Origin: Patescibacteria group bacterium
Lineage (GTDB): Bacteria; Patescibacteriota; Patescibacteriia; Patescibacteriales; UBA12465
Direction: 5' to 3'
Assembly: GCA_041651095.1 (NCBI GenBank)
Contig: JBAZJV010000003.1
Span: forward strand, 80,293 to 144,292
Length of the DNA: 64,000 nt
In this document: positions 119 to 64,000 of the stretch, in pieces
Position numbering within the stretch: the stretch's first letter is position 1
How the letters are laid out: the number at the start of each line of letters is the position of its first letter
Notes under the pieces: generated by a model
Database searches by the model: none
The model's input: the letters and a program-made list of their open reading frames with translations, nothing else
Told to the model about the DNA's origin: nothing
Position numbers and translations under genes: made by a program

Positions 119-152
119 CCGCCGCGTTCCATGAGACCGGCGGTTTTTATTT
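119..152. terminator. intrinsic terminator-like hairpin between the left-edge CDS and the uvrC stop
   Basis: CCGCCG (119-124) pairs with CGGCGG (138-143); T-run 144-148 on the + strand. Confidence 0.45.
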
Positions 153-1316
153 TAGTCCGGACGGCCTCTTGGCCCTTTTTCGCCCATAATTGGCGAAACG
201 GTGTGCTTCTTCCCTGACTTTAAGCAGCGTCGGCTTGATATTGGCGGCCAGGTCGCGCAGCGCTTTAGTGGTGGCGGCCGGAAAGACCAGCCGGTCGCCG
301 CCGAATTTGGAGATGCCCACCAGGGGGCGCTGAATATTATGATCGGCCAGGACGCGGGACAGGAAACTTATTTGTGGCGATCCGCCGTCAATCATAATCA
401 GGTCGGGCAAAGGCCATTCCGCATGCCGGAAGCGCCGGAGCAGGACTTCGGCTAAGGCGCGTTCATCGTCGCCGGCGGGCGCGTCCTTTATTTTGAATAA
501 GCGATATTCGGATCGGGCCGCTTCTCCGTTGGCGAAAACGACCATCGAGCCGTAGCTCTCCCGGCCGGCCAGATGCGAGATGTCGTAGCCCTCTATCCGA
601 TTGATTTTCCCTTCTTCGAGATCATCTTCGCGCGTCAGCAAGGAGACATCCTGGAGGTGTTTGAGCGCCTTTATCTTATCCGGATTTTCTTTTATTAATT
701 TCTTGATCAGGCGCTTTTTTTCGCCGCCCAGCAGCAAGCTGATATTATTGATATTGTTTTGATAATCTCTCGCCGAGATGGCATCGACACAGGCGCCCGG
801 GCAAAGGCCGATCTGATAGTCGAAACAGGCTTGGCCATTGTGCGGCCGGCAGGTGCCATAGGGGAAAACGCGTCGGATCAGCCGCAGCGCCGTATTGAGG
901 AGATAAAAAGATTGATATGGCCCGAAGACCTTGGCCCGGCTGGCGGGAAATTTTTTCAGGTCGTTGCCGCGGACGATCAGCGGTTTGGTGAATTCCTGTT
1001 TCGGAATGACGACATAGATAAATGAACGGTCATCGCGGTCTACTATATTATATTTTGGCCAATATTTCTTGATATTATATGCTTCCAGGATGATCGCTTC
1101 CAACAAGGTGTCCGTGGCTTCATATTTAATATCGCCGGCTTGAGCGACCATCTCGGCAATGCGCGGATTGATATTTTTCTGAAAGTATTGGCTTAGGCGA
1201 TTTTTTAGACTGGTCGCTCGGCCAACATACAATATCTGGCCATGCTTATCTAGCCAGAAATAAATACCCGGCTGCTTGGGAATGGTTTTTAGTTTATCTT
1301 TTAATTTTGAAGCCAT
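147..1316 (-). CDS. uvrC: excinuclease ABC subunit C, minimised form (389 aa)
   Basis: N-terminal GIY-YIG (GIYFWLD...ILYVGRATSLKNRLSQYF). Cys-rich segment (QIGLCPGAC). RNase H-like 3'-half motif RIEGYDISHLAGRESYGSMVVF...IMIDGG. Ends at ...EEAHRFANYGRKRAK, before where the (HhH)2 domain would start. Confidence 0.85.
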   Translation of the reverse strand: MASKLKDKLKTIPKQPGIYFWLDKHGQILYVGRATSLKNRLSQYFQKNINPRIAEMVAQAGDIKYEATDTLLEAIILEAYNIKKYWPKYNIVDRDDRSFIYVVIPKQEFTKPLIVRGNDLKKFPASRAKVFGPYQSFYLLNTALRLIRRVFPYGTCRPHNGQACFDYQIGLCPGACVDAISARDYQNNINNISLLLGGEKKRLIKKLIKENPDKIKALKHLQDVSLLTREDDLEEGKINRIEGYDISHLAGRESYGSMVVFANGEAARSEYRLFKIKDAPAGDDERALAEVLLRRFRHAEWPLPDLIMIDGGSPQISFLSRVLADHNIQRPLVGISKFGGDRLVFPAATTKALRDLAANIKPTLLKVREEAHRFANYGRKRAKRPSGLK

Positions 1317-1611
1317 AGAGATATTCAGTCGAGCTGATTCGTCCGGTTTTTATGCTGACGCCTTCTTTTTTCAGCAGCGCTATCTTTTTGGCGGCACCGC
1401 CGGCAAAGCCGCCGATCGTTCCGTCCGAGCGGATGACGCGGTGGCACGGCACCTGCGGCGCGTAAGGATTATTATGCAAGGCGTTGCCGACGGCGCGGGA
1501 CGCTCCCGGTTGGCCGAGAGCTTTGGCCAGGGCGAGATAAGTCGCCACCCGGCCGCGCGGTATGAGCGCGGTTAAACGATATACTCGTTTTTGAAAATTA
1601 GTTACTGTCAT
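1294..1611 (-). CDS. ogt: methylated-DNA--protein-cysteine methyltransferase (short, C-terminal-domain-only MGMT/Ogt)
   Basis: Active-site PCHRVI motif and helix-turn-helix region (YLALAKALGQPGASRAVGNAL). 23-nt overlap with the uvrC start. Confidence 0.8.
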   Translation of the reverse strand: MTVTNFQKRVYRLTALIPRGRVATYLALAKALGQPGASRAVGNALHNNPYAPQVPCHRVIRSDGTIGGFAGGAAKKIALLKKEGVSIKTGRISSTEYLYGFKIKR

Positions 1612-1650: not shown

Positions 1651-2544
1651 CTATCCGCTGGTAAAGCCGATAGTCAGGCTGCAGATAATGGTAATAGCGG
1701 CGCCGAGGTATTGCCAGCCGCGGATCTTTTCCTTATTGAATTTCAACCCTAAGAGCATGGCAATAACGATATAGCCTTCGGTTACCGCGGCCACAATGGC
1801 TAACTCTCCTTTTTCCGACATGGAAAAAGCAAAGAATAGCCAGGCTATGATATCGACGACGGCTGAAGCTAATATCCAGGGCCAATGCTGTCGGCTGTGT
1901 TTGATGACCGCGCCGAATTTACCCCGTAACAGGAAGTAGGTCAGGCAAACCAGTCCGCTCAAGCTCCAGGGAAACCAGATCGCCAGGAGCGGCGTAACCC
2001 TGACCGATCCCAGGGCGGTAAAAAAATTGGTCAGAGCCAGCAGGATGGCGGTCAGCGCGGCCAGCCAAGCGCCTCTTTCCAAGAAAATCTTATTTTTTTG
2101 CCAGAAGAACCAGAATTGATGCCAGCGCATCTTATTAAAATCCAGGGAAATCAGAATGACGCCGACGAATAAGCCGAAGATTAGCAGTAATTGATCAGGC
2201 GATAAGGTGTTTTGCAGGAACATGACGCCCAGGATGATGGTAATAGGCAGTTCGAAAAACAAGATGATTTCAACAACTGACAGCTTGCCGGTTTCTAGGG
2301 CTTTGAAATGGGCCATGGCGCCGGCGAAATCGATAACCCCTAAGATCAGCAGCAAACTGACACCGGGCCAATTCAGGACCCATAGATCTCGCCAAATAAG
2401 CGGCAATAAGCCGATAAAGCTGGCCAAATAAATCCACCATAAGGTTTCTAGCCAGCCAATCCGATGTATGACCTTCTGACTGAGGAAATCCCCCAGCCCC
2501 CAACCGACCATCGCCCCGAAGGCGAGCAAGATCGCTATGTTCAT
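1651..2544 (-). CDS. EamA/DMT-family membrane transporter
   Basis: About 10 hydrophobic helices with two EamA-like halves. No specific substrate can be inferred. Confidence 0.65.
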   Translation of the reverse strand: MNIAILLAFGAMVGWGLGDFLSQKVIHRIGWLETLWWIYLASFIGLLPLIWRDLWVLNWPGVSLLLILGVIDFAGAMAHFKALETGKLSVVEIILFFELPITIILGVMFLQNTLSPDQLLLIFGLFVGVILISLDFNKMRWHQFWFFWQKNKIFLERGAWLAALTAILLALTNFFTALGSVRVTPLLAIWFPWSLSGLVCLTYFLLRGKFGAVIKHSRQHWPWILASAVVDIIAWLFFAFSMSEKGELAIVAAVTEGYIVIAMLLGLKFNKEKIRGWQYLGAAITIICSLTIGFTSG

Positions 2545-2549
2545 AAGTT

Positions 2550-5057
2550 TTATTTCAAATAGGGCTTTAAATATTTACCGGTAAAACTGGCGGGTTCCCG
2601 GGCGACGTCTTCGGGGGCGCCGGCCGCCACCAAGCGGCCGCCCGCTTCCCCGCCGTCCGGGCCGAGATCGATCAGATAATCCATCGCCTTGAGCATATGC
2701 ATATTGTGCTCGATGACCAAAACGGAATTGCCTTTTTCTACCAGTCTATTAAGCACGCCGAGCAATAGGTCGATGTCGTAATAATGCAGGCCGGTGGTCG
2801 GTTCGTCCAGCAGATAGAGCGTCCGTTTGCCCAAGGTATGGGTAAGCTCCTTGGCGATCTTGATGCGCTGGGCTTCACCGCCGGAGAGGGTCGTAGCGCT
2901 CTGGCCGATCTTGAGATAGCCGAGGCCGACCGAAGCCAGGACTTTCAATTTGTCGGTTATCAGATAATTCCCTTCGAAATGTTCGATTGCTTCGTCAATG
3001 GTCAGATCCAGGATTTCCGCGATATTTTTCCCCTTGTATTTTACTTGCAGGGTTTCCCGGTTGAACCGTTTGCCGCGGCAGACTTCGCACTCGACCAGCA
3101 CCGGCGGCAGAAAATGCATCTCAATCAGATTGGCGCCGGCGCCCTCGCAGGCTTCGCAGCGGCCGCCGGCACGATTGAAGGAAAAGCGGCCGATATTATA
3201 GCCTCTTTCCCGCGATTCAGGCAGGGCGGCAAAAAAATCGCGGATCGGCGTGAAGATGCCGGTGTAAGTCGCCGGATTGGAACGCGGCGTCCGGCCGATA
3301 GGCGACTGATCGATTACGACGATTCGGTTGATATATTCCAAGCCCTTGACCTCCTTGACTTCTTCTAATTTGTTCTTGCCCGGGTGATTCTTCAGATAGC
3401 TCACATTCTTATAGATTACATCATAGAGCAACGACGATTTGCCGCTGCCGGAGACGCCGCTGATGCCGACCAGGCGGCCTAGGGGGATATCGATATTTAG
3501 GTTTTTCAAGTTATTGGCGTGCGCGCCGCGCAGCCGCAAGGTCCCGTGGTTCTGTTCCCGGCGTTTGCTCGGCAAGGCGATGTCCTTCAGGCCGCTGAGG
3601 TATTGCAGGGTCAGGGATTTTTTCATCAGCGCCTTGTTCTTCTTGTCGCTCAGCAGATCCTTGGTTTCACCGCTGGCCACCACTTCCCCGCCGTGCACGC
3701 CGGCCAGCGGCCCGAGGTCGACCAGATAATCGGAAGATAAGATGGTCCGTTCGTCATGCTCGACGATAATGACCGTATTATTCTTGTCCCGCAATTTCTG
3801 CAAGGTCTCGATCAGGCGTTCGGTGTCCCGCTCATGCAAACCGATGGTCGGTTCGTCGAGCACGTACAGCGTGCGTGACAGATGCGAGCCGATCTGCGAG
3901 GATAAGCGTATCCGTTGGGCTTCACCGCCGGAAAGAGTTTCCGCCTCCCGGTCCAGAGAGATATAATGCAGGCCGACTTTCAGCAGGAATTCCAGACGGC
4001 TGATCACCTGGACGACCACGTTTTCCGCGATCGCCAGCTGACGTTTGGTCATCTTTTCATAATAATGATTGAAGAAGTCCAGGGACCGGTTGATCGGCAA
4101 AGCGCTGACTTCGGCGATATTCTTATTGTTTATCCGCACGGCCAAGGCTTCCGGCCGCAAGCGCCGTCCCCGACAGACCGGGCATTTTTCGTCGGAAAAG
4201 AAATCAGTCCGTCCCAGGCCGGTGCATTCCGGACAGGCGCCATGCGGTGAATTGAAGGAAAACAGCCGCGGCTCCACTTCCGGGAATGAGAAATTATCAT
4301 TCGGGCAGGTCCAATTGGCCGAGAGCAGGAATTCCCGGTCCTGATATTTGGCGATGACTAATCCCTTGCTGTAGTCCAGGGAATTCTCAATCGCTTCGAA
4401 CAGCCGGGTCTGGTCGCTCAGCAGTATCTTATCGATGACGATATCGATATCATGCTTCTGTTTCGGAGCCAGCTTGACGGTTTCGCGCAACGAGTGGACC
4501 TTGCCGTCGATGCGCGATTCGCTGTAGCCGAGGCCTAGGTAATTATAGAGCAGTTGGTAATATTCGCCTTTGCGATCGCGGACGACCGGCGACAAAATCG
4601 TGACATATTCCTCTCCCTGTTCCTGGCCGCGATTGATGACGATATCAACCATCTCTTCCACGGTCAGCTTTTCGATCTTGGTGCCGCAGACCGGGCAATA
4701 GACCTCGCCGATCCGGGCGTAAAGGACGCGCAGATAATCATAGATTTCGGTCAAGGTGCCGACCGTGGAACGCGGATTATGCGACAGGGCTTTCTGGTCA
4801 ATAGAAATGGACGGCGCCAAACCGACGATTTCATCGACATCGGCCGGTTTCTTCTGACCCAGGAATTGGCGCATATAGGGCGAGAGCGACTCCACGTATT
4901 GCCGCTGCCCTTCGGCGAAGATCGTATCGAAAGCCAACGACGATTTGCCGCTGCCGGAGACGCCGGTGATGACCGTCAATTTATTATGCGGTATTTCCAG
5001 GTCGATATTCTTTAAGTTATGCATCCGCGCGCCGCGAATGATCAGTTTTTCAGACAT
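2550..5057 (-). CDS. uvrA: excinuclease ABC subunit A (835 aa, insertion domain absent)
   Basis: GVSGSGKSSLAFDTIFAEGQRQYVESLS; two ABC modules (LSGGEAQR x2, Walker A GVSGSGKSSL x2); zinc modules CPVCG and ACPECTGLG...CPVCRG. Confidence 0.95.
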   Translation of the reverse strand: MSEKLIIRGARMHNLKNIDLEIPHNKLTVITGVSGSGKSSLAFDTIFAEGQRQYVESLSPYMRQFLGQKKPADVDEIVGLAPSISIDQKALSHNPRSTVGTLTEIYDYLRVLYARIGEVYCPVCGTKIEKLTVEEMVDIVINRGQEQGEEYVTILSPVVRDRKGEYYQLLYNYLGLGYSESRIDGKVHSLRETVKLAPKQKHDIDIVIDKILLSDQTRLFEAIENSLDYSKGLVIAKYQDREFLLSANWTCPNDNFSFPEVEPRLFSFNSPHGACPECTGLGRTDFFSDEKCPVCRGRRLRPEALAVRINNKNIAEVSALPINRSLDFFNHYYEKMTKRQLAIAENVVVQVISRLEFLLKVGLHYISLDREAETLSGGEAQRIRLSSQIGSHLSRTLYVLDEPTIGLHERDTERLIETLQKLRDKNNTVIIVEHDERTILSSDYLVDLGPLAGVHGGEVVASGETKDLLSDKKNKALMKKSLTLQYLSGLKDIALPSKRREQNHGTLRLRGAHANNLKNLNIDIPLGRLVGISGVSGSGKSSLLYDVIYKNVSYLKNHPGKNKLEEVKEVKGLEYINRIVVIDQSPIGRTPRSNPATYTGIFTPIRDFFAALPESRERGYNIGRFSFNRAGGRCEACEGAGANLIEMHFLPPVLVECEVCRGKRFNRETLQVKYKGKNIAEILDLTIDEAIEHFEGNYLITDKLKVLASVGLGYLKIGQSATTLSGGEAQRIKIAKELTHTLGKRTLYLLDEPTTGLHYYDIDLLLGVLNRLVEKGNSVLVIEHNMHMLKAMDYLIDLGPDGGEAGGRLVAAGAPEDVAREPASFTGKYLKPYLK

Positions 5058-5060
5058 AAT

Positions 5061-5642
5061 TTAAGTGTTTAAAAAAGGATTGGGGTCTTCAAAAGTCACC
5101 CGGGCAATATGGTTATTGATATAATCTTCGCCTAAACCGTATTTGTTCTGATATAAGGTCGTGATGCCGCAGAATAAAGCTTGTTGATAATCGAAACCCA
5201 GTTTAAGGCTGACCTTTTTTACTGCCGCTTCTGAACTCCCTTCTATTTCCACATATGGCTCGAGGTAGGGCCATTCATCAATCGTGATTTCTACGCCGTC
5301 TAAGCGCCATAATTCCCGTCGACTTTCTTGATAGGCTTTTTTCTGGCCGCCAATCATCTCTAAAAAATTTACCGCTTCCGTAAAATTATCAACCTGCAAG
5401 CAAACTTCCGTCTGGTTCTCTATCTTGTCGCCATTGATTATCTTCAGGCTCATGGTGATTCTGTCCTGTTCATCACGCACCCTCAACCAGCCGCCGGGAA
5501 TTTCATGTCCGCTGGGTAAATTGAACACAACCCGTTTTTGCAAAAATTCCGGCTTGGCTAAGATTGCGCCAGCCTCTTTCAATCGGGCGCGCATTTCCGC
5601 CTTATCAATATTAGTGAAGGTCGCTTCGTATTCTATGGCCAT
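5061..5642 (-). CDS. CYTH-domain (triphosphate tunnel metalloenzyme / CyaB-like) protein
   Basis: N-terminal IEYEATF (ExExK-like, K replaced), WLRVRD...ITMSLKI, and C-terminal ITIDEWPYLEPYVEIEG resemble the CYTH beta-barrel motifs. Confidence 0.55.
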   Translation of the reverse strand: MAIEYEATFTNIDKAEMRARLKEAGAILAKPEFLQKRVVFNLPSGHEIPGGWLRVRDEQDRITMSLKIINGDKIENQTEVCLQVDNFTEAVNFLEMIGGQKKAYQESRRELWRLDGVEITIDEWPYLEPYVEIEGSSEAAVKKVSLKLGFDYQQALFCGITTLYQNKYGLGEDYINNHIARVTFEDPNPFLNT

Positions 5643-5652
5643 ATTTTTATCA

Positions 5653-7503
5653 TTAATGTTCTGATTCGTCTTTTTTCTCTATATCCAAAAATTCTTCGAT
5701 TTTCTTGGTAATATTGCGCGGCGTGATACCATGCTGCTTATTATACGCCAGCTGTTTTTTCCGTCGGCGCTCCGCCTCTTTGATGGCCCGGCGCATTGAC
5801 GCCGTCACCTTGTCGGCGTAGAGGATGATTTTTCCTTTGACATTGCGCGCCGCCCGGCCCATGGTCTGCATCAGCGAGGTATCGCTGCGCAAGAAGCCCT
5901 CGCGATCCGCGTCCAATATCGCCACCAGGGTCACTTCCGGCAGATCCAGGCCTTCCCGCAATAGGTTGACGCCGATAAGCACGTCGAATTTGCCGACCCG
6001 GAAATCTTTCAATATTTCCGTGCGTTCGAAAGTCTTGATATCCGAATGGAGATAATTAGCCCGGAAACCGCGGCCGTTTAGATAAGCATTCAGGTCTTCC
6101 GCCTGTTTTTTGGTCAAGGTATTAATGATCGCCCGCTCCCCCAGGCCGGCAATGCGTTTGATTTCCAGCATGACGTCGTTGATCTGGCTGTAATTTTTAA
6201 CCGGATCGAAAACCGGCCGGACCTCGATGAGCGGATCGACTAGGCCCGTCGGCCGAATCACCTGTTCGGCCACCTGTTCGGAATGTTCGGTCTCAAATTG
6301 CCCCGGCGTAGCGGTTGTAAATATCATCTGTCCGACACGCGCCTCGAATTCGCTGAATTTCAGAGGCCGGTTATCCAACGCGGACGGCAGCCGCCAGCCG
6401 TATTGGGACAGGATCTTCTTGCGCGCCTGATCGCCGTTATACATGCCTCTAATCTGCGGCACCGCGATATGCGATTCGTCGATAATAGTCAGGAAATCCG
6501 GCCGGCCGGCCTGCCAGGGGAAATAAGCCAAAAGCGAGTCCGGCGCTTCCCCGGCCAGCTTGCCGCTCAGATGGCGGGAATAATTCTCGATGCCATGGCA
6601 ATAGCCGAGCGTCCCAAGCATCTCCAGATCATAATTAGTCCGCCGTTCCAGCCGTTCCGCTTCCAGCAATAATCCCTCTTTTTTGAAATAAGCCAAGCGC
6701 TCTTTCAGCTCCGCCCGAATATTCTTAATGGCCGTTTCGATTTGCGGCTGAGTGGAGACGAAGTGTTTGGGCGGGAAAATGACTATTTCCTCCAAACTTT
6801 CCAGGATATTTTTCGTCGTATTATCGATAATGGAAATAGCGCCGACCTTCTGGCCGCTCAACTCCAGGCGATAGACCAGATTTTCCGATTTCGGCCGGAT
6901 TTCGAAAATATCACCTCTGACTCGGAATTCACCTCGATTGACTTCCCCGTTAACCCGGGTGAACTGGATCTTGATCAATTGCCTGATCAGATCCGCCCTA
7001 ACCAACGGCTTATCTTTTTCCAGCACCAAACGCGCTTCCAGATAAGTATTCGGTACGCCCAGATTGTAAATACAGGAAACGGAAGCCACGATAATGACGT
7101 CGCGGCGAGAAACCAGAGCGGCGGTCGCGCCGTGGCGCAGGCGGTCTATCTCCTCATTAACCATCGCTTCCTTGTCGATATAAGTATCGGTGATCGGCAG
7201 ATAAGCCTCGGGCTGATAGTAGTCGTAATATGAAACGAAATAATGGACGGCATTTTCCGGGAAAAAGTTCTTATACTCGCGATAAAGCTGGGCCGCCAAG
7301 GCCTTGTTCGGAGCGATGACCAGTACCGGCCGATCCAGGCCGGCAATGATGTTGGCGATCGTAAAAGTCTTGCCGGAGCCGGTAACGCCTAGGAGAGTCT
7401 GATAACGCAATCCGGCCGCCAGGCCCTGCTGCAGCTTCTCGATGGCGGCCGGTTGGTCGCCGGCTGGCTGGAAATCCGCTTTTAATTTGAATAAACCGGG
7501 CAT
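5653..7503 (-). CDS. uvrB: excinuclease ABC subunit B (616 aa, no C-terminal UVR domain)
   Basis: QPAGDQPAAI, GVTGSGKTF Walker A, DESH box, helicase motifs, ...NKQHGITPRNI, then stop about 20 aa later. Confidence 0.95.
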   Translation of the reverse strand: MPGLFKLKADFQPAGDQPAAIEKLQQGLAAGLRYQTLLGVTGSGKTFTIANIIAGLDRPVLVIAPNKALAAQLYREYKNFFPENAVHYFVSYYDYYQPEAYLPITDTYIDKEAMVNEEIDRLRHGATAALVSRRDVIIVASVSCIYNLGVPNTYLEARLVLEKDKPLVRADLIRQLIKIQFTRVNGEVNRGEFRVRGDIFEIRPKSENLVYRLELSGQKVGAISIIDNTTKNILESLEEIVIFPPKHFVSTQPQIETAIKNIRAELKERLAYFKKEGLLLEAERLERRTNYDLEMLGTLGYCHGIENYSRHLSGKLAGEAPDSLLAYFPWQAGRPDFLTIIDESHIAVPQIRGMYNGDQARKKILSQYGWRLPSALDNRPLKFSEFEARVGQMIFTTATPGQFETEHSEQVAEQVIRPTGLVDPLIEVRPVFDPVKNYSQINDVMLEIKRIAGLGERAIINTLTKKQAEDLNAYLNGRGFRANYLHSDIKTFERTEILKDFRVGKFDVLIGVNLLREGLDLPEVTLVAILDADREGFLRSDTSLMQTMGRAARNVKGKIILYADKVTASMRRAIKEAERRRKKQLAYNKQHGITPRNITKKIEEFLDIEKKDESEH

Positions 7504-7704: not shown

Positions 7705-10203
7705 CTACCGACTGGCGCCGCTATAAGCGATAGCCCGGACAATATTCCAAGCCAAGGGGTTTATCGGGTCGTGACGATAAACCGCGCGGAAGGATTTGAT
7801 CGCCTGTTTTTCGCTATTGGTATTCCGGCTGGTCGGCCGCAGACCGTAAGCGATGATAGTGATGGCGTTAGCGTCATGCGCGTTCTGCATATTAGCCGCC
7901 CGATTATAGACTTTTAAGAATTCGGATTTAGCCTGGGTTTCCGCTTTGGCGCTGGTCTCGCCCGGCCAGCGGCCCAGGGCGATCTTAATGGCATCCGACC
8001 ATTCGGACGCGTTACTCGGCAATTTGGCAAAGGCTTGCCAATAAGAACTTAGGACACCCGCCCTTTCCCCGGCTCCTAGTTTCAGCGTGCCCGGCGTGCC
8101 GTAGGTGATAAAATAATTGAGGCCATTGACTTGCGCCGTAGTCATAGTCAGTCCCTTGATCAAAGGGGCGACATACTTGTTAAGATTGGCGTTTTCGGAA
8201 TTTTGATTGCGCGTCAAACCCAGACTGCTTAGTACGGCGGTAATATCCCCGCCACCCAAGTTTTGCGCTTCCCGGCTGATCTGCTGCAAAGTGCTGTCCG
8301 TCGTCCCTGAGCCGGAGCTGGTGTTGCTGCCGCTACTATTGTTGCTATTAGTGGTGCTCTGATTATTGACTGTAACCGCCAGCGAGGAACAATTATTGGT
8401 CGCGGCGCAGACGACGATCACCGTGGAACCGGCGTTCTTGCCGACCAAAATCAAACTGGCATTATTGATATTGGCTTGAGCGATAGTCGGGTTGGAATTG
8501 GAGGAAATAGAATAATTGCTGGTGGAGCCGCCGGAAATATTAACGACCCGGCTTTGCCCGACGCCGAGAGTGGGATTAGCCGGATCCAGAACCGGCGGCG
8601 TTGCGGTCGTATTGGTGCCGGCCACCGTGGCGTAAATGACGCCGCACTGTCCGCTGCTCTGGCAAACCGTGGCGTTAGCGCTGCCGGCGCTGAGCGCCGT
8701 CACCGTGACTTTATTGTTATTCAGGGCGAAGGAGGCGACATTCTGGTTATTGGTGCTGGAAATATAGTAACCGCCGGTACCAAAGAGACTGACATCGGTC
8801 GTGCCGCCGATATTCAGGGAGATATTGTTATTGCTGAAAGTCAGTTGGCTGTTGGTGCTGACGCCGTTAACCAGTACCGATAATTGGGTGCAAGCGCCGG
8901 CCGCCGAGCAGACGTTGACCGTGCCATTGCCGGCCCCGACGCCGGTGAGCGTCAGGATATTATTGTTCAGATTGGCCTGGAAGATATTGCTGCCGGTATT
9001 ATCGGCCAGACTATAAGGATAGGTGCCGCCGGAAACCGTGACGCTGACCGCCTGGCCGGCTTGGAGCCAAAGGTTATTTTGGCTGAGTGAAATCGGTCCG
9101 CTGGTCGCATAACTGACCGTCACCGTTACCGAACCGCAGTTGCCGTTAGAGGCACAAACCGTAACGACCGAAGAGCCGGTGCTGTTGCCGACCAGGCTCA
9201 GGCTGTTGCTGCCGCTGATGCTGGCCAGGACGACATTGGAACTGGAATTGGACGAAATGCTGTAATTGCTGCCGCCGGAAATCGGGATATTCAAAGACTG
9301 TCCGACAGTCAAGGACGGACTGGTCTGACTGAAGACCAAAGAGGAGGAAGTGACGCTGCCGGCCGAGGCGTTGATGATGCCGCAGGCGCTCATATTGGTC
9401 GTACAGACCGTAAGCGAAGTCCGGCCGCTGCTGTTATTCGCTTTAAGGGTAATAGTCGTATTATCCAGCGAAGCCGAGATGATACTGGGATTGGAATTAT
9501 TCAAAATCGTGTAATTCCCGGCCCCGCTCAGGATGGAAACGGTCGTGCTCTGTCCATAGGCGATAGTCAGGCTGGTCTGGCTGAAAGTGAGCGACTGCGC
9601 GCCGACGTTCTGGACGGTGACATAAGCGCTTGTACAATTAGAGGTCGTGCCTAAGGCGCAGACCGTCACTACGGTCTGGCCGTAGGTGTTAGCCGTCAAC
9701 GTTACCTGGTTATTACTGATACTGACATTAGCAATTTGCGGATTGGAGTTATTCAGCATGTAGAGCAGGTTGTTGCCGACGTTATTGACGTTTAAGGTAG
9801 TCGATTGTCCCTTGGTGATAACCAGGCCGGTTTGGTTGAAGCTAATAGCGCCCGTAGAGGTGTTCGAATTGTACGGCCAGGCGACGTAGGCGGAGGCAAC
9901 GCCGCCTACCGTTACGTGAATCGAACTTTCCGGCGCGATGCCGTAATTTGCGGTGCTTACCGTAATGCCCAGAGTCCCGCTGGTATTGGTCGTGCCCAGA
10001 AATTGTGAACGAGTGATGCCGTCGCTCTTCTGGTAATACATGATGACGCTCGCGCTGGCGTTGCCGGTTACGTCTATTTTTACGTCGTCGCCATCACCGC
10101 TAGTCAGCGACAAGGTCGGCGCGGCCGCTTGAGCGGCCAGCCCGAAAGATAAGGAAGCTGTCAGCGCCAGCAAGGCGATGCCAAGGAGGAAAAACTTTTT
10201 CAT
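7705..10203 (-). CDS. secreted cell-surface protein: signal peptide, six tandem Ig-like (Big_2-like) repeats, unknown C-terminal domain
   Basis: MKKFFLLGIALLALTASLSFGLAAQAAA signal peptide. Six ~82-aa repeats, an S/N/T-rich linker, and a 198-aa C-terminal domain with no recognisable family. Confidence 0.8.
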   Translation of the reverse strand: MKKFFLLGIALLALTASLSFGLAAQAAAPTLSLTSGDGDDVKIDVTGNASASVIMYYQKSDGITRSQFLGTTNTSGTLGITVSTANYGIAPESSIHVTVGGVASAYVAWPYNSNTSTGAISFNQTGLVITKGQSTTLNVNNVGNNLLYMLNNSNPQIANVSISNNQVTLTANTYGQTVVTVCALGTTSNCTSAYVTVQNVGAQSLTFSQTSLTIAYGQSTTVSILSGAGNYTILNNSNPSIISASLDNTTITLKANNSSGRTSLTVCTTNMSACGIINASAGSVTSSSLVFSQTSPSLTVGQSLNIPISGGSNYSISSNSSSNVVLASISGSNSLSLVGNSTGSSVVTVCASNGNCGSVTVTVSYATSGPISLSQNNLWLQAGQAVSVTVSGGTYPYSLADNTGSNIFQANLNNNILTLTGVGAGNGTVNVCSAAGACTQLSVLVNGVSTNSQLTFSNNNISLNIGGTTDVSLFGTGGYYISSTNNQNVASFALNNNKVTVTALSAGSANATVCQSSGQCGVIYATVAGTNTTATPPVLDPANPTLGVGQSRVVNISGGSTSNYSISSNSNPTIAQANINNASLILVGKNAGSTVIVVCAATNNCSSLAVTVNNQSTTNSNNSSGSNTSSGSGTTDSTLQQISREAQNLGGGDITAVLSSLGLTRNQNSENANLNKYVAPLIKGLTMTTAQVNGLNYFITYGTPGTLKLGAGERAGVLSSYWQAFAKLPSNASEWSDAIKIALGRWPGETSAKAETQAKSEFLKVYNRAANMQNAHDANAITIIAYGLRPTSRNTNSEKQAIKSFRAVYRHDPINPLAWNIVRAIAYSGASR
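8371..9849 (-). repeat. six tandem ~246-bp coding repeats (~82 aa each) inside the surface-protein gene
   Basis: Repeat pattern [SLTFSQTSL.I..GQS..V.I.G...Y.I..NSN..I....I.NN.ITL......G...VTVC....NC.....V.V]. Each unit carries a C-x(4-6)-C pair. Confidence 0.75.
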
Positions 10204-58800: not shown

Positions 58801-60279
58801 TCAATCTTTTTTGATCACAATCTTAATCCGATCGACCAAGCTGGGCGCTTTCTTGATGAAAGCCGGCGAGAAAGACAGGGAGAAATCCTTGACTTCCGGC
58901 TGAGCCTTCAAATAAGTGGCGATCTGATCGGCGCTCAGGTTGACCAGTTGCTGCGGATTGATCACTTGCGCATCACGTTTCAGGACCATAATGCCGCTAA
59001 AAGAAGCCTTGACCGTAGCCGTCCTGGTAGGCGCATCGTAATTCTCCAGGCTGTAAACGATATTTTCCGGCTTGAATTCGGTCAATTCCTTGTCGTCCGG
59101 AATAATCAGGTTCAGCTTGGCTGCCGCCAGCTTGGCCGCTTGCTCCTTGGGAAAATATATGGCGATTATTTTTCCGCTCGCCTGAGCCGTGAACTGATCC
59201 TGTTGGCTGCCCTTTTTCGCGCTGAAGCTGATGGCAGGCGAATCGCCGCCGGCATACAGCCAATTGCTGTCCGCCGGCGAACCGGCACTGGCTTGCTCCT
59301 TGGCGGTCCTTAATAGGGCATCGGTGATATCAGTTGTCGCCCATTCCAAATCGCTGACGTTCACGTATTTTTTAACCTTCTGGCTATAAGCAAATTTAGC
59401 GTCGCTTTTGGCGTAGATCTTGTCCTGCAGGCCGACCCAGAGGCCGGGGATGGTAAAAGTGGTCGGATCAAGAGCCAGAACGGCGCTGGGCTTGTCGGCG
59501 TATATGCCGACCGCCACTTCCCCGCCGGCCGGGACATTGACCGCCTCCTTTATTCGGAACAGTTTATTATCCGGGCTAAGCAGGCGCGTAGTGGCCACTA
59601 ATGGTTGATTCTTATTATAATTATTGATGATCCTGACCTGGCCGGAGATTTCTTCGCCTAGATAGGTTTCGCCGGTCGCCGGATAAGTGCGCTGCACGCT
59701 GGCGCTGACTTCCTTGATGGAACCGCTTACGGCCTCGCGTGGATCGTTCTCGCCGACCGTAGCGGCCGTCGTGCTCGCCGTGTTAGCGGCGGCATCCGCA
59801 ACTTTCAATAACAGGCTGTCATTGATGTTTTCGCCCTTCAGGCTAATAGTGACGGTCAGCTGGGAAAAGGAAAAATAGGCGACGACCGCGGCTAAGGCCA
59901 GCACCAGGATGACGAATTTGATGACCAGGCGACGGTATAATCCGACACTGCGTCCCTTCTTGGCCGTTTTCGCTTCTTTAGCCGGGCCGCCGGCCCGGTG
60001 ATCATGACCCTTCATTTCCGAAGCCAGACCGGAAAAGAATTCTTTCTGGCGATCCAGATTCTCTAATTCCGCTTCGCTGACCGGAGTTTCTTCAATCCGG
60101 TCGCGATCGGCGATCCCGGACATGGTCGGATCAAAGGAAAGTCCTTCTGCCGGCTCGTCCTCAATGACATCAACCAGAATGGATTTGGTTTTCCGTTTAG
60201 GCCGGATAGTCCGCAGCGCCGGTTTCTTGGTCTTCGGTTTTGGAGCTCCGGCCGGCGCGGCCGCTTTGGTTCTAGGCAT
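58801..60279 (-). CDS. hypothetical membrane-anchored protein with a K/P-rich N-terminus and a large extracytoplasmic domain
   Basis: MPRTKAAAPAGAPKPKTKKP..., one TM helix (FVILVLALAAVVAYF). No family recognised. I prefer the start at 60279. Confidence 0.5.
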   Translation of the reverse strand: MPRTKAAAPAGAPKPKTKKPALRTIRPKRKTKSILVDVIEDEPAEGLSFDPTMSGIADRDRIEETPVSEAELENLDRQKEFFSGLASEMKGHDHRAGGPAKEAKTAKKGRSVGLYRRLVIKFVILVLALAAVVAYFSFSQLTVTISLKGENINDSLLLKVADAAANTASTTAATVGENDPREAVSGSIKEVSASVQRTYPATGETYLGEEISGQVRIINNYNKNQPLVATTRLLSPDNKLFRIKEAVNVPAGGEVAVGIYADKPSAVLALDPTTFTIPGLWVGLQDKIYAKSDAKFAYSQKVKKYVNVSDLEWATTDITDALLRTAKEQASAGSPADSNWLYAGGDSPAISFSAKKGSQQDQFTAQASGKIIAIYFPKEQAAKLAAAKLNLIIPDDKELTEFKPENIVYSLENYDAPTRTATVKASFSGIMVLKRDAQVINPQQLVNLSADQIATYLKAQPEVKDFSLSFSPAFIKKAPSLVDRIKIVIKKD

Positions 60280-60358
60280 AATAAATAAAAAAGTGAAGCA
60301 AATTACCAACTAGCTCCATTATAACAGAATTTAAAAAGGCCGACAATTTTTTCGGCAT

Positions 60359-63300
60359 TCAGGCGGCAATTTTTATGTCCGAAGAAAATTTATCCCGGAT
60401 CTGCCGCTGCAAAGCATCGCCGTTGTCCACCCGGAAAGCCGTTTTGATGACGCGCGCTTGTCCGGCTTCGTTAAAGCGGAAATAAACTTCATCTTGGCCC
60501 GGATGCGCGGCGAAAATCCGGAGCAATTCCGTCTGTATGGCAGCGGTCGGTTCGGCCAGGAAAGTCAGGCGTAAAGGATTGATCGATTGACGGACGGCGC
60601 TGACGGGCGGCGTGGCGGCGGCCGATTGCGGCGTTACCGGCTTAAGCGACGCCGGAACAGATTTATGGCCGTTACCATGACCGTTATGATAACCATTGCC
60701 GTTATGATAACCGTTATTATTGCGGAAGCCGTTCTTAGGCGGCCCGCTTTCTAAAATTAATTTCTTGAAGGCGTCAATGGAGCGCTGCGGTTCCGCCTGA
60801 TCCAGGGCGCTGGCCCGATTGACCAGCACCTTGATTTCTAAATCTTTTTCCGACACCTTGCCGTCGATAATCACGGATTGCCCGACGCGCCATAAGGCGG
60901 CGGTCTCTTTGAGCAGGCGCGGGAAAACCAATAATTCGACCGTGGTCGTCGCATCTTCTATTTTCACGAACAACATTGATTCGCCGCTCCGGGTAATTAT
61001 TTTCTTGATCACGGAAACTACGCCGGCCGCGATGACGCGATCATCACCCTTATGCTGCGGCAATTCGGCCAGCGGCACGGCATAATTCGCCAGATAGGGC
61101 CGGAAAACGTTCTGCGGATGCTCGCTGACATAAAGGCCGAGCAACTCTTTTTCCCAATTCAGCTTGTCGCTTTGTTCGGCCGGCGCCGCGGGCGAGAGCT
61201 GGGGGCGGCCGATGCCGGCCGTCGGCAGGTCGGCAAAGAGGCTGCTTTGCTTGCTATCTTTATTCTTGGCAATCTCCTTATTGAGGCTGAGCAGCCGTTC
61301 CAGGTTGGCCAAGAGCTGGCCGCGCTCGCCGAAACTGTCCAGGGCGCCGCTCCTGATCAGGCTTTCCATGGATTTCTTGTTCAGGTCCTTATCCGTTATC
61401 CGTTCCAAAAGATCAAAGATGTCCTGGTACGGGCCATGCTCTTTGCGTTCGCGGATTATTTCCTCCACGATATGCTCGCCGACGTTCTTGATCGCCTTAA
61501 GCCCGAAGCGGATGGTTTCCGACTTGGCCGCGGCGGCGACAGACTGGTTGGTCTTGGTGCCGGCCGTGACGACGGTAAAGGTCCCGAACGATTCATTGAC
61601 ATCCGGCGCCATTATTTTCAACCCCATATTGCGGCATTCCTCGATTTCGATGGCCACCCGATCCGTGTCTCCCTGGTCCGAAGTCAATAAGGCCGCCATG
61701 AATTCCGCCGGCCAGTGCGCTTTCAAATAAGCGGTCTGATAGCCGATCATGGCATAGCAGGCGGCATGGCTGCGATTGAAACCGTAGCCGGCAAAAGGCT
61801 CGATGAAAGAAAAAACCTTCTCGCCGAGCTCCTTATAGACGCCGTTCTTGACGCAACCTTCAATGAATTTCTCTTTCTGCTCCGCCAAGAGCGAGGCAAT
61901 TTTCTTGCCCACGGCCTTGCGCAAGACGTCAGCCTGCCCCATGGTAAATCCCGCCAAATCGCGGGCGATTTGCATAACCTGTTCCTGATAAATGGCGACA
62001 CCGTAGGTCTTTTCCAGGATTGGCGCCAGTTTCGGATGCAAGTAAGCGACTTTCTTCTTCTGGTGTTTGCCGGCGATATAGTCCGGAATCCATTCCATCG
62101 GCCCCGGCCGATATAAGGCGACCATGGCGATGATGTCTTCAAAAACCGTCGGCTTCAGCTCGCGCAAGTAGCGTTTCATGCCCGAAGATTCAAACTGGAA
62201 GACGCCGGTAGTTTCGCCCTCCTGGAATAATTTATAAGTCGCCGCGTCATCTAAAGGAATCTGCTCAATATCCAACTCCAAACCGCGGGTATTCTTGATA
62301 ATTTTCAAAGCCGATTCAATGATCGTCAGGTTCTTCAAGCCCAAAAAATCCATTTTCAAGAGGCCCAAGTCCTCGATCGGATGCAGCGAATACTGCGAGA
62401 TAACGCTGCGGTCGGCAGAAGAGGCGTATTGGATGGGGACATATTCGGTGAGCGGATCCTTGGTGATCAGGACGCCGCAGGCATGGGTGGAAGCGTGGCG
62501 AGCCACGCCTTCCAGGCGTTTGGCGTAATCCAGGATGCGCTTAGCCGGCGCTTCCTTCTGGTACATTTCCCGGAGTTCCGGCACGGTCTTCAGGGCTTCT
62601 TCCAGCTTCATGAACATCGGGATGCTCTTGGAAATCTTATCGCAGTAGTCATACGGCTCGTCCAGGACCCGGCCGACGTCGCGCACGGCCGCCCGGGCGG
62701 CCATGGTCCCGAAAGTGATGATCTGGGCGACGTGGTCGGAACCGTATTTTTTTTCCACGTACTGCAAGACCTCGCCGCGGCGGACGTCGGCAAAATCCAT
62801 ATCGATATCCGGCATGGAAATACGATCCGGGTTCAGGAAGCGCTCAAAAACCAGGTCGTATTTAAGGGGGTCAAGGTTGGTGATGCCGGTCAGATAGCAG
62901 ACCAAGGAACCGGCGGCCGAACCGCGGCCCGGACCGACCACGATCTTATTATCCTTGGCCCAATTAATGAAATCAGCGACGATTAAGAAATAAGACGGCC
63001 AACCCATCTTGGCGATAACCGATAATTCATAATCCAATCGTTCATTGATCGTTTTAAGTTCGTCTGGTCCGGCGCCGGGGAAACGCTTGCCGATTCCCTG
63101 CTCGCACCACTCCCGCAGATAGGAATTGCCGTCATAGCCTTGCGGCACTTCGAAATGCGGCAGCTGGATATTGCCGAGGTCGATTTCCACGTCGCACATC
63201 TCGGCGATCTTCAAGGTATTAGCTACGGCTTCCGGCGTTTCCCGGAAAGCGGCGGCCATTTCGGCGTTGGAACGCATGGAATAATCGCCGTAACCGAGCA

Positions 63301-64000
63301 TTTTCATCCGGTCGGTGTCGGTAATTTTCTTTTTATTCTGCAGGCATAACAGGATGTCCTGGGCTTCGGCGTCTTCTTTCTTGAAATAATGGATATCATT
63401 GGTCGCGACCAGCGGGATATGCAGCTCCCGGGAGAACTTGATCAATTGCTGGTTGACCTTAGCTTGGCCGTCCAGTTCAGGGTGATCCTGGATTTCCAAA
63501 TAGTAATTACCCGGACCGAAAAGTTCGTTATATTCTAAAATCCGCTTTTTCGCCTCGGCCAGCTTATCGGCCACGATCAAACGAGCGATTTCGCCGGCTA
63601 GACAGGCCGAAGTGGCAATCAGGCCGTCGTGATGCTTTTGTAAAATTTCCCAGTCAATGCGCGGCTTATAATAAAAGCCCTCAATGTGGGCGACAGATAC
63701 CAATTTAATGAGATTCTGGTAGCCGGTATTGTTTTTAGCCAATAGGAGCAGATGATATCCCCGGTCTTCGCGGGTATTTTTGTCAAGACGGGAATTGGGC
63801 GCCAGGTAGGTTTCCACACCCAAAATCGGCTTAATGCCGGCTTTCTTGGCTTTCTGATAGAATTCGATGATGCCGTACATGGTGCCGTGATCAGTGAGAG
63901 CCACGGCTGGCGAACCCTGTTCTTTGGCATAATTAACCATTTCGTCCAGCTTAGTCAGGCCGTCGAGCAAAGAATAGTGGCTATGGTTATGGAGATGGAC
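60359..64000 (-). CDS. dnaE: DNA polymerase III alpha subunit (5' end beyond the window)
   Basis: PHP domain (window-edge codons read VHLHNHSHYSLLDG), polymerase core, OB fold, C-terminal domain. The reading frame continues past 64000. Confidence 0.93.
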   Translation of the reverse strand, partial: VHLHNHSHYSLLDGLTKLDEMVNYAKEQGSPAVALTDHGTMYGIIEFYQKAKKAGIKPILGVETYLAPNSRLDKNTREDRGYHLLLLAKNNTGYQNLIKLVSVAHIEGFYYKPRIDWEILQKHHDGLIATSACLAGEIARLIVADKLAEAKKRILEYNELFGPGNYYLEIQDHPELDGQAKVNQQLIKFSRELHIPLVATNDIHYFKKEDAEAQDILLCLQNKKKITDTDRMKMLGYGDYSMRSNAEMAAAFRETPEAVANTLKIAEMCDVEIDLGNIQLPHFEVPQGYDGNSYLREWCEQGIGKRFPGAGPDELKTINERLDYELSVIAKMGWPSYFLIVADFINWAKDNKIVVGPGRGSAAGSLVCYLTGITNLDPLKYDLVFERFLNPDRISMPDIDMDFADVRRGEVLQYVEKKYGSDHVAQIITFGTMAARAAVRDVGRVLDEPYDYCDKISKSIPMFMKLEEALKTVPELREMYQKEAPAKRILDYAKRLEGVARHASTHACGVLITKDPLTEYVPIQYASSADRSVISQYSLHPIEDLGLLKMDFLGLKNLTIIESALKIIKNTRGLELDIEQIPLDDAATYKLFQEGETTGVFQFESSGMKRYLRELKPTVFEDIIAMVALYRPGPMEWIPDYIAGKHQKKKVAYLHPKLAPILEKTYGVAIYQEQVMQIARDLAGFTMGQADVLRKAVGKKIASLLAEQKEKFIEGCVKNGVYKELGEKVFSFIEPFAGYGFNRSHAACYAMIGYQTAYLKAHWPAEFMAALLTSDQGDTDRVAIEIEECRNMGLKIMAPDVNESFGTFTVVTAGTKTNQSVAAAAKSETIRFGLKAIKNVGEHIVEEIIRERKEHGPYQDIFDLLERITDKDLNKKSMESLIRSGALDSFGERGQLLANLERLLSLNKEIAKNKDSKQSSLFADLPTAGIGRPQLSPAAPAEQSDKLNWEKELLGLYVSEHPQNVFRPYLANYAVPLAELPQHKGDDRVIAAGVVSVIKKIITRSGESMLFVKIEDATTTVELLVFPRLLKETAALWRVGQSVIIDGKVSEKDLEIKVLVNRASALDQAEPQRSIDAFKKLILESGPPKNGFRNNNGYHNGNGYHNGHGNGHKSVPASLKPVTPQSAAATPPVSAVRQSINPLRLTFLAEPTAAIQTELLRIFAAHPGQDEVYFRFNEAGQARVIKTAFRVDNGDALQRQIRDKFSSDIKIAA

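Follow-up and report, generated by a model that had tools for sequence, protein, structure and literature searches.

Canonical UvrA carries an insertion domain (ID), which is the DNA-binding domain of Pfam family PF17755, between the two CxxC halves of its zinc module 2. Class II UvrA proteins, which include UvrA2 of D. radiodurans, DrrC, and Ecm16, retain the ID and are without the UvrB-binding domain. These class II proteins are UvrA paralogs that do not act in excision repair. Here we describe a uvrA gene (2550..5057, minus strand) that encodes a class I-type UvrA of 835 amino acids (aa) without the ID. The gene lies in a stretch of 64,000 nucleotides (nt) from a Patescibacteria group bacterium (GenBank assembly GCA_041651095.1, contig JBAZJV010000003.1, positions 80,293 to 144,292 of the forward strand). 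We refer to this whole stretch as the window and count positions from its first letter. The assignment of the gene is based on the list of open reading frames (ORFs), NCBIfam, the Protein Data Bank (PDB), and Foldseek.

Engineered UvrAs without the ID have been characterized. E. coli UvrA Δ290-400 incises a 50-bp lesion substrate like the wild type, while it incises plasmid DNA more slowly and is poorer at discriminating damaged from undamaged DNA (Manelyte et al. 2010, PMC3025350). Transcription-coupled repair is less impaired by this deletion than global repair (PMC3025350). The B. stearothermophilus UvrA lacking its ID had no apparent defect in vitro (Pakotiprapha et al. 2008, cited in PMC3025350). 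In the C. thermocellum UvrA the IDs clamp straight DNA only and are mobile in the ATP-bound bent state (PMC12796330). That 2025 study described an ATP-driven wedge in the ATP-binding-I domain as the key element, proposed recognition independent of the ID, and explicitly called for tests of the role of the ID. In a limited literature search we found no description of a natural stand-alone UvrA without the ID or of reduced uvr genes in Patescibacteria.

A UvrA without the insertion domain

Zinc module 2 of the window UvrA and the deletion junction are encoded at 4158..4238 on the minus strand (ACPECTGLGRTDFFSDEKCPVCRGRRL), which translates to residues 274-300. The module has the cysteine pairs C275/C278 and C292/C295, and exactly 9 residues lead from the GLG motif to the second CxxC (ACPECTGLG-RTDFFSDEK-CPVCRGRRL). 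This linker, RTDFFSDEK, takes the place of an ID of ~112 aa. In a global alignment the window UvrA is 53% identical to E. coli K-12 UvrA (940 aa). The sole large gap is found between F287 and S288 of the window protein, opposite E. coli residues 290-401 (112 aa). Nearly all of the difference between 835 and 940 aa is due to this single gap.

Profile and database searches place the gap at the same site. Using phmmer against all PDB chains, the window UvrA matched UvrA (E = 1e-289) in two collinear stretches, with query residues 4-283 aligned to positions 25-~303 of the C. thermocellum UvrA chain and residues 285-834 to positions 421-960. Two NCBIfam equivalogs were matched above their cut-offs, NF001503 with 1193 bits (cut-off 1147) and TIGR00630 with 1132.6 (cut-off 729.8), and both matches are split into two stretches with the ID positions between them. 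PF17755 (UvrA_DNA-bind), the family of the ID, gave no match to the window UvrA in a Pfam scan, while the control, L059, matched with E = 5e-38. Judged by alignment and domain content, the residues that are gone (~112) are the ID and no other part of the protein.

The UvrB-binding domain (aa 132-240; 4338..4664, minus strand) is present. The Pfam scan matched UvrA_inter (PF17760) to these residues with E = 4e-22, and the same residues match 4dfc_B (E = 5e-15), a PDB fragment deposited as UvrABC system protein A. An AlphaFold2 model of the window UvrA has a mean predicted local distance difference test score (pLDDT) of 85.7 and a predicted template modeling (TM) score (pTM) of 0.74. Over residues 271-300 the pLDDT is 85-92, so the shortened zinc module 2 is confidently predicted. 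The best Foldseek matches for the predicted fold are the class I structures 3uwx_A and 2r6f_A (query-normalised TM-score 0.80-0.81), whereas class II UvrA2 and Ecm16 scored lower (0.66-0.72).

The original prediction, made from the letters of the sequence alone, had read the two motifs of zinc module 2 as joined by 9 residues at 4158-4235. Translation and the cysteine positions bear out the join, and its location is right; the end is off by a trivial amount, as 4235 omits the codon of A274 and the true end is 4238. Taking the absent segment for the ID, and the ID loss for the reason behind the 835-aa length, agrees with the single alignment gap, the absent PF17755, and the split PDB match. That the UvrB-binding region was retained, and that the architecture was not that of UvrA2 or class II, had also been proposed. 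Both hold, given the PF17760 and 4dfc_B matches, two invariant residues of the UvrB-interaction surface (R218 and E224, below), the absent ID, and a fold nearest to class I.

Residues retained in the ID-less proteins

Conservation was assessed in an alignment of 98 ID-less proteins that are 55-91% identical to the window UvrA. Invariant in all 98 are the Walker A lysines (K38 and K540), R218, E224, Y61, Q64, F65, R606, the eight Cys of zinc modules 2 and 3, and C121, C251, and D254 of zinc module 1. With both Walker A lysines and LSGGEAQR signatures at residues 375-382 and 724-731, the two ABC ATPase modules of the window UvrA are intact. R218 and E224 align to R216 and E222 of the UvrB-interaction surface in E. 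coli UvrA. Similarly, R606, R616, R618, and R624 align to E. coli R712, R722, R724, and R730, DNA-binding residues of signature domain II. The E. coli UvrB-interaction residues and DNA-binding arginines are described in PMC3025350. The wedge residues Y61, Q64, and F65 (4863..4877, minus strand) are the counterparts, in C. thermocellum UvrA, of Y62, Q65, and F66, the role of which is described in PMC12796330. The numbering is offset by one because the Walker A lysine is K38 here and K39 in the C. thermocellum protein.

All three zinc modules are present in the window UvrA as predicted metal sites. The first half of zinc module 1, C121-x-x-C124 (4686..4697, minus strand), has an invariant C121 and a C124 that is at least 90% conserved. 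In the second half, C251-x-x-D254 (WTCPNDNF; 4296..4307, minus strand), the fourth ligand position is Asp, whereas other UvrAs have C-x-x-C or C-x-x-H. The CxxD pattern was found in 336 of the 336 homologs where the pattern was located. Zinc module 3 with its hairpin (C634/C637/C657/C660; 3078..3158, minus strand) has all four Cys invariant. Some other Patescibacteria, namely Peribacteria, have no Cys at the second half of zinc module 1.

Three open frames run antisense to uvrA on the plus strand (2784..3368, 3915..4250, and 4554..5015). They are 111-194 aa long, and their translations are repetitive and rich in Arg, Ala, and Gly. They look to be a side effect of the composition of the coding strand and not genes.

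Distribution of the ID-less UvrA

To determine how widely the deletion occurs, we scanned one genome per species and analyzed the best 79 loci (L001-L079). In 55 of the 57 loci L001-L057 (57-88% identity), the starts of the two motifs are 16-17 residues apart; the other two, L048 and L050, are fragmentary loci with an unreadable motif site and were left out of the count. The motif spacing is 128-133 in L059-L079 (52-56% identity), which come from Peregrinibacteria, Gracilibacteria, Peribacteria, some metagenome-assembled genomes labelled Saccharibacteria, Ruminococcus, and Desulfuromusa. Peregrinibacteria and Gracilibacteria retain the ID. The spacing is 16-18 in 335 of 346 stand-alone homologs and 27 or 32 in eight; three have no matching second motif, and a spacing of ID length was not seen in any.

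The 120 best database homologs are 76-100% identical to the window UvrA and 821-864 aa long, and PF17755 is found in none of them. Where a source is named, it is in most cases Patescibacteria or Falkowbacteria. When the most distant ID-less proteins served as queries, the matches listed were once more all PF17755-negative, under names that include Paceibacterota, Minisyncoccia, Tagabacteria, Harrisonbacteria, Wolfebacteria, Azambacteria, Parcubacteria, and Pacebacteria. PF17755 was matched in 0 of 360 homologs among the matches listed. The trait is, as these homologs indicate, not particular to the window genome. One of the loci, L013, is on a closed Falkowbacteria chromosome of 977,025 bp that encodes the same gene. 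In a neighbor-joining (NJ) tree of UvrA modules, all 200 of 200 bootstraps recover the stand-alone ID-less proteins as one clade, and 193 of 200 group the sampled stand-alone UvrAs that contain an ID. The spread of the deletion among related lineages, a point that the original prediction had left for checking, thus proves to be wide, with the deletion fixed in a very large Patescibacteria clade.

Many loci, including L001, L004, L007, L009, and L010, come from assemblies titled 'uncultured Gammaproteobacteria bacterium', and one from an 'uncultured archaeon'. These assemblies encode a Patescibacteria-type uvrA at 74-88% identity, most of them with the same uvr cluster. Their taxonomic labels look unreliable.

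ID-less modules are also encoded beyond this clade. The top 150 matches of a representative search were dominated by double-length UvrAs, in which both modules add to the score. These tandem-fused proteins of about 1,600-1,830 aa have one module with a UvrB-binding domain and without an ID. Examples are L058 (2563..7992 of that locus, plus strand), P0122, P0136, P0139, P0150, and P0157, from Fibrobacterales, Planctomycetota, and Chitinispirillaceae. The other module is canonical except in P0150, where both modules are without the ID. The spacing from CxxC to CxxC in the ID-less modules is 8-38 residues. In the NJ tree they fall outside the stand-alone ID-less clade, which suggests that the losses were independent and that the ID went missing more than once in the UvrA family. 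An ID-less architecture with a UvrB-binding domain is, by domain content, not unique to Patescibacteria.

The uvr gene cluster

The window uvrA is part of a cluster on the minus strand in the order uvrB-CYTH-uvrA-EamA-ogt-uvrC. The genes are separated by gaps of 3-39 nt, and ogt overlaps the start of uvrC by 23 nt. The uvrB...uvrA...uvrC neighborhood is conserved in the ID-less loci. Domain 4 of UvrB and the UVR motif of UvrC form a coiled-coil contact thought to recruit UvrC to UvrB. The window UvrB (5653..7503, minus strand; 616 aa) is without this C-terminal, UvrC-binding UVR domain. Its Pfam matches end with PF12344 at aa 561-602, and PF02151 was not found in the Pfam scan. Likewise, the protein aligns to positions 5-603 of the 661 in a PDB UvrB chain and covers positions 2-601 of the 653 in the NCBIfam profile. 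UvrB is about 611 aa in relatives, and mostly 610-631 aa across the related ID-less loci.

UvrC is also reduced. The window uvrC (147..1316, minus strand) encodes 389 aa and narrowly passes TIGR00194 (295.9, cut-off 285.45). It retains the GIY-YIG domain, the Cys-rich region (CX7CX7CX3C), and the active RNase H-like endonuclease, and is without the UVR motif, the inactive RNase H domain (PF22920), the linker, and the tandem helix-hairpin-helix domain, (HhH)2. These losses were read from an alignment with full-length Patescibacteria UvrCs that have all parts. In ID-less loci UvrC is 384-445 aa long; in the five ID-containing Patescibacteria loci with an adjacent uvrC it is full-length, with 621-683 aa. 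Loss of the ID goes together with loss of both UVR halves of the UvrB-UvrC contact. The original prediction did not mention the domain-reduced UvrB and UvrC encoded in the same operon.

We considered whether a lost UvrC domain is encoded by a separate gene and, for the ORFs scanned downstream of uvrC in L001, rejected this. A GC-rich hairpin directly follows the stop codon of the window uvrC, and no match to an HhH or UVR family was found in the ORFs scanned downstream of uvrC in L001, where those with Pfam matches were PEP-utilizers and SIMPL. The hairpin was not listed by the terminator scan. Counts from the promoter and terminator scan were not above those for shuffled sequence, and a promoter-like site (10/12) upstream of uvrB is suggestive at most.

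Three further genes are in the cluster. A CYTH-domain gene (5061..5642, minus strand; 193 aa, PF01928) is separated by 10 nt from uvrB on one side and by 3 nt from uvrA on the other, and is in the same place in 13 ID-less loci. Its product has a weak match, below the cut-off, to the class IV adenylate cyclase CyaB; we know of no link to repair and no DNA-binding role for it. A gene for an EamA transporter (1651..2544, minus strand) lies between uvrA and ogt. The ogt gene (1294..1611, minus strand) codes for an O6-alkylguanine-DNA alkyltransferase of 105 aa with a PCHRV motif (TIGR00589, 96.4 against a cut-off of 46.4). This mini-Ogt is the C-terminal DNA-binding and active-site domain alone. 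In L001 the ogt homolog also sits between EamA and uvrC.

Outside the cluster, an ORF that adjoins uvrB (7705..10203, minus strand; 832 aa) has a single match, to the pilus-formation N-terminal region PF13629. An ORF that adjoins dnaE (58801..60309, minus strand; 502 aa) has zero Pfam matches.

Discussion

The window protein is quite probably a working UvrA of nucleotide excision repair. On this explanation, the ancestor of its clade lost the ID by a clean in-frame excision at the hinge of zinc module 2, and purifying selection fixed the shortened form. The same explanation, with like probability, has as the host a Patescibacteria of the Parcubacteria/Falkowbacteria type. Parsimony favors loss over primary absence, since an ID is found in class I, class II, and fused UvrAs alike. 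The tree and the motif spacings would be read most simply as one loss in an ancestor that became fixed in a very large clade.

How such a protein might work can be outlined from the parts that are kept. The ID-less dimer would bind DNA along signature domain II and the hairpin of zinc module 3. The stability of the duplex would be probed by ATP-driven bending and insertion of the wedge, and the DNA would then be handed over to UvrB, loaded through the retained UvrB-binding domain. None of these steps would involve the clamp by which the IDs of canonical UvrA grip straight DNA. As in E. coli UvrA Δ290-400, a lesion would be expected to be incised normally and undamaged DNA to be rejected less well. 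In a genome of about 1 Mb, weaker discrimination may be affordable.

Several points weigh against this explanation. The link to genome size is an inference on our part. The NJ tree puts the ID-less clade as a sister to the sampled canonical UvrAs and not nested within them. A 2025 cryo-EM study also holds the IDs to be essential for coordinating and melting DNA and for base flipping, and central to its clamping (PMC11985968). An ID-less protein might therefore be seriously impaired unless the loss is compensated.

Other origins of the short protein were considered. An assembly or sequencing artefact, or a decaying pseudogene, would mean that ~340 nt of the ID were lost in one assembly, and the window does derive from a metagenome-assembled genome, which is all that speaks for this. 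The ORF is intact with the junction in frame, however, and the catalytic and zinc residues are invariant across relatives that are 55-91% identical. A sequencing deletion, which the original prediction had named as grounds for its refutation, is excluded by the same spacing in 55 independent assemblies and a spacing of 16-18 in 335 of 346 homologs. We consider the artefact or pseudogene reading refuted and its likelihood negligible. A specialized paralog working outside excision repair, with a canonical UvrA at another place in the genome, is very unlikely. UvrA paralogs with altered domain sets are common and ID-less modules exist in the fused UvrAs of other phyla. Unlike the class II proteins, however, the window UvrA keeps its UvrB-binding domain, it passes the curated UvrA equivalog thresholds, and nearly all related loci have uvrB to one side of uvrA and uvrC to the other. 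As weaker evidence, 0 assemblies among the best 79 loci had both an ID-less and an ID-containing locus.

The job of the ID could also be done in trans or be bypassed, with recruitment by Mfd, photolyase, the CYTH protein, or Ogt and repair that is mainly targeted. In line with this, UV survival of an E. coli strain with an ID-less UvrA reportedly depended on photolyase in work by Wagner et al. in 2011. The bias of E. coli UvrA Δ290-400 to transcription-coupled repair (PMC3025350) and the presence of the CYTH gene and the mini-ogt inside the operon are also consistent with it. However, no mfd or photolyase gene was seen in the 64-kb window, of which part of the ORFs were scanned, and the CYTH gene, with no known DNA-binding role, is in only 13 ID-less loci. 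A 1203-aa ORF (60359..63970) was considered as a candidate Mfd and rejected, as it is DnaE. We regard recruitment in trans or a bypass as unlikely, if less so than a paralog; it is compatible with a working ID-less UvrA and does not exclude it.

If the window UvrA is a working repair protein, loss of the ID would belong to a broader trimming of the system, with domain 4 gone from UvrB and the UVR motif, inactive RNase H domain, and (HhH)2 gone from UvrC. A more tentative proposal, which we hold to be possible, is that Parcubacteria-type Patescibacteria run a naturally minimized UvrABC, without several modules to which textbooks ascribe a function, with a UvrA that has no ID clamp and a UvrB and UvrC that are also reduced. 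Should this trimmed system be active, the ATP-driven wedge can by itself suffice to recognize damage, and UvrB must hand off to UvrC through a different interface. As a candidate minimal UvrABC, the trimmed proteins would help sort essential from accessory parts of repair and offer a smaller target for structural work.

The ID-less UvrA also bears on the 2025 dispute over whether an ID clamp (PMC11985968) or an ATP-driven wedge (PMC12796330) is central. It would provide a natural test across a whole radiation, in which the wedge, the ATPase sites, and the UvrB-binding domain were kept and the ID was discarded at the boundaries of the laboratory deletion. An evolved and presumably functional protein without the ID would thus be available for direct biochemical comparison. 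Annotation is touched as well, since ID-less sequences have been public for years under the plain UvrA label 'excinuclease ABC subunit UvrA'.

Compared with the known kinds, the window UvrA is, by curated thresholds, a class I UvrA that fails one defining feature, the ID. Like the class I proteins of E. coli, G. stearothermophilus, T. maritima, M. tuberculosis, and C. thermocellum, it has a uvrB/uvrC neighborhood; its identity to the E. coli protein is that given above, and its best structural matches are of this class (query-normalised TM-score 0.78-0.81). Unlike them, it is without the whole ~112-aa ID, and the fourth ligand of zinc module 1 is Asp in place of Cys or His. The natural gap at E. 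coli 290-401 has practically the same boundaries as engineered E. coli UvrA Δ290-400. However, that mutant and the ID-less B. stearothermophilus UvrA are single-step deletions made within otherwise canonical systems, whereas the natural form evolved, is fixed in a clade, and has partners, UvrB and UvrC, that are also reduced.

The fused UvrAs have this domain content in one module, and P0150 in both. PF17760 is retained in these ID-less modules, which align over their full length with the window UvrA at 40-47% identity. The window protein differs in being a single 835-aa module, and it scores 622 bits against NF001885 (cut-off 3054). This model of ~1,809 positions (NF001885/PRK00635) may represent the fused kind. 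Class II UvrAs resemble the window UvrA in being ABC ATPases minus one accessory domain and in their similar length of about 810-840 aa. In the domain that is missing, the window UvrA is their mirror image, with the UvrB-binding domain kept and the ID gone.

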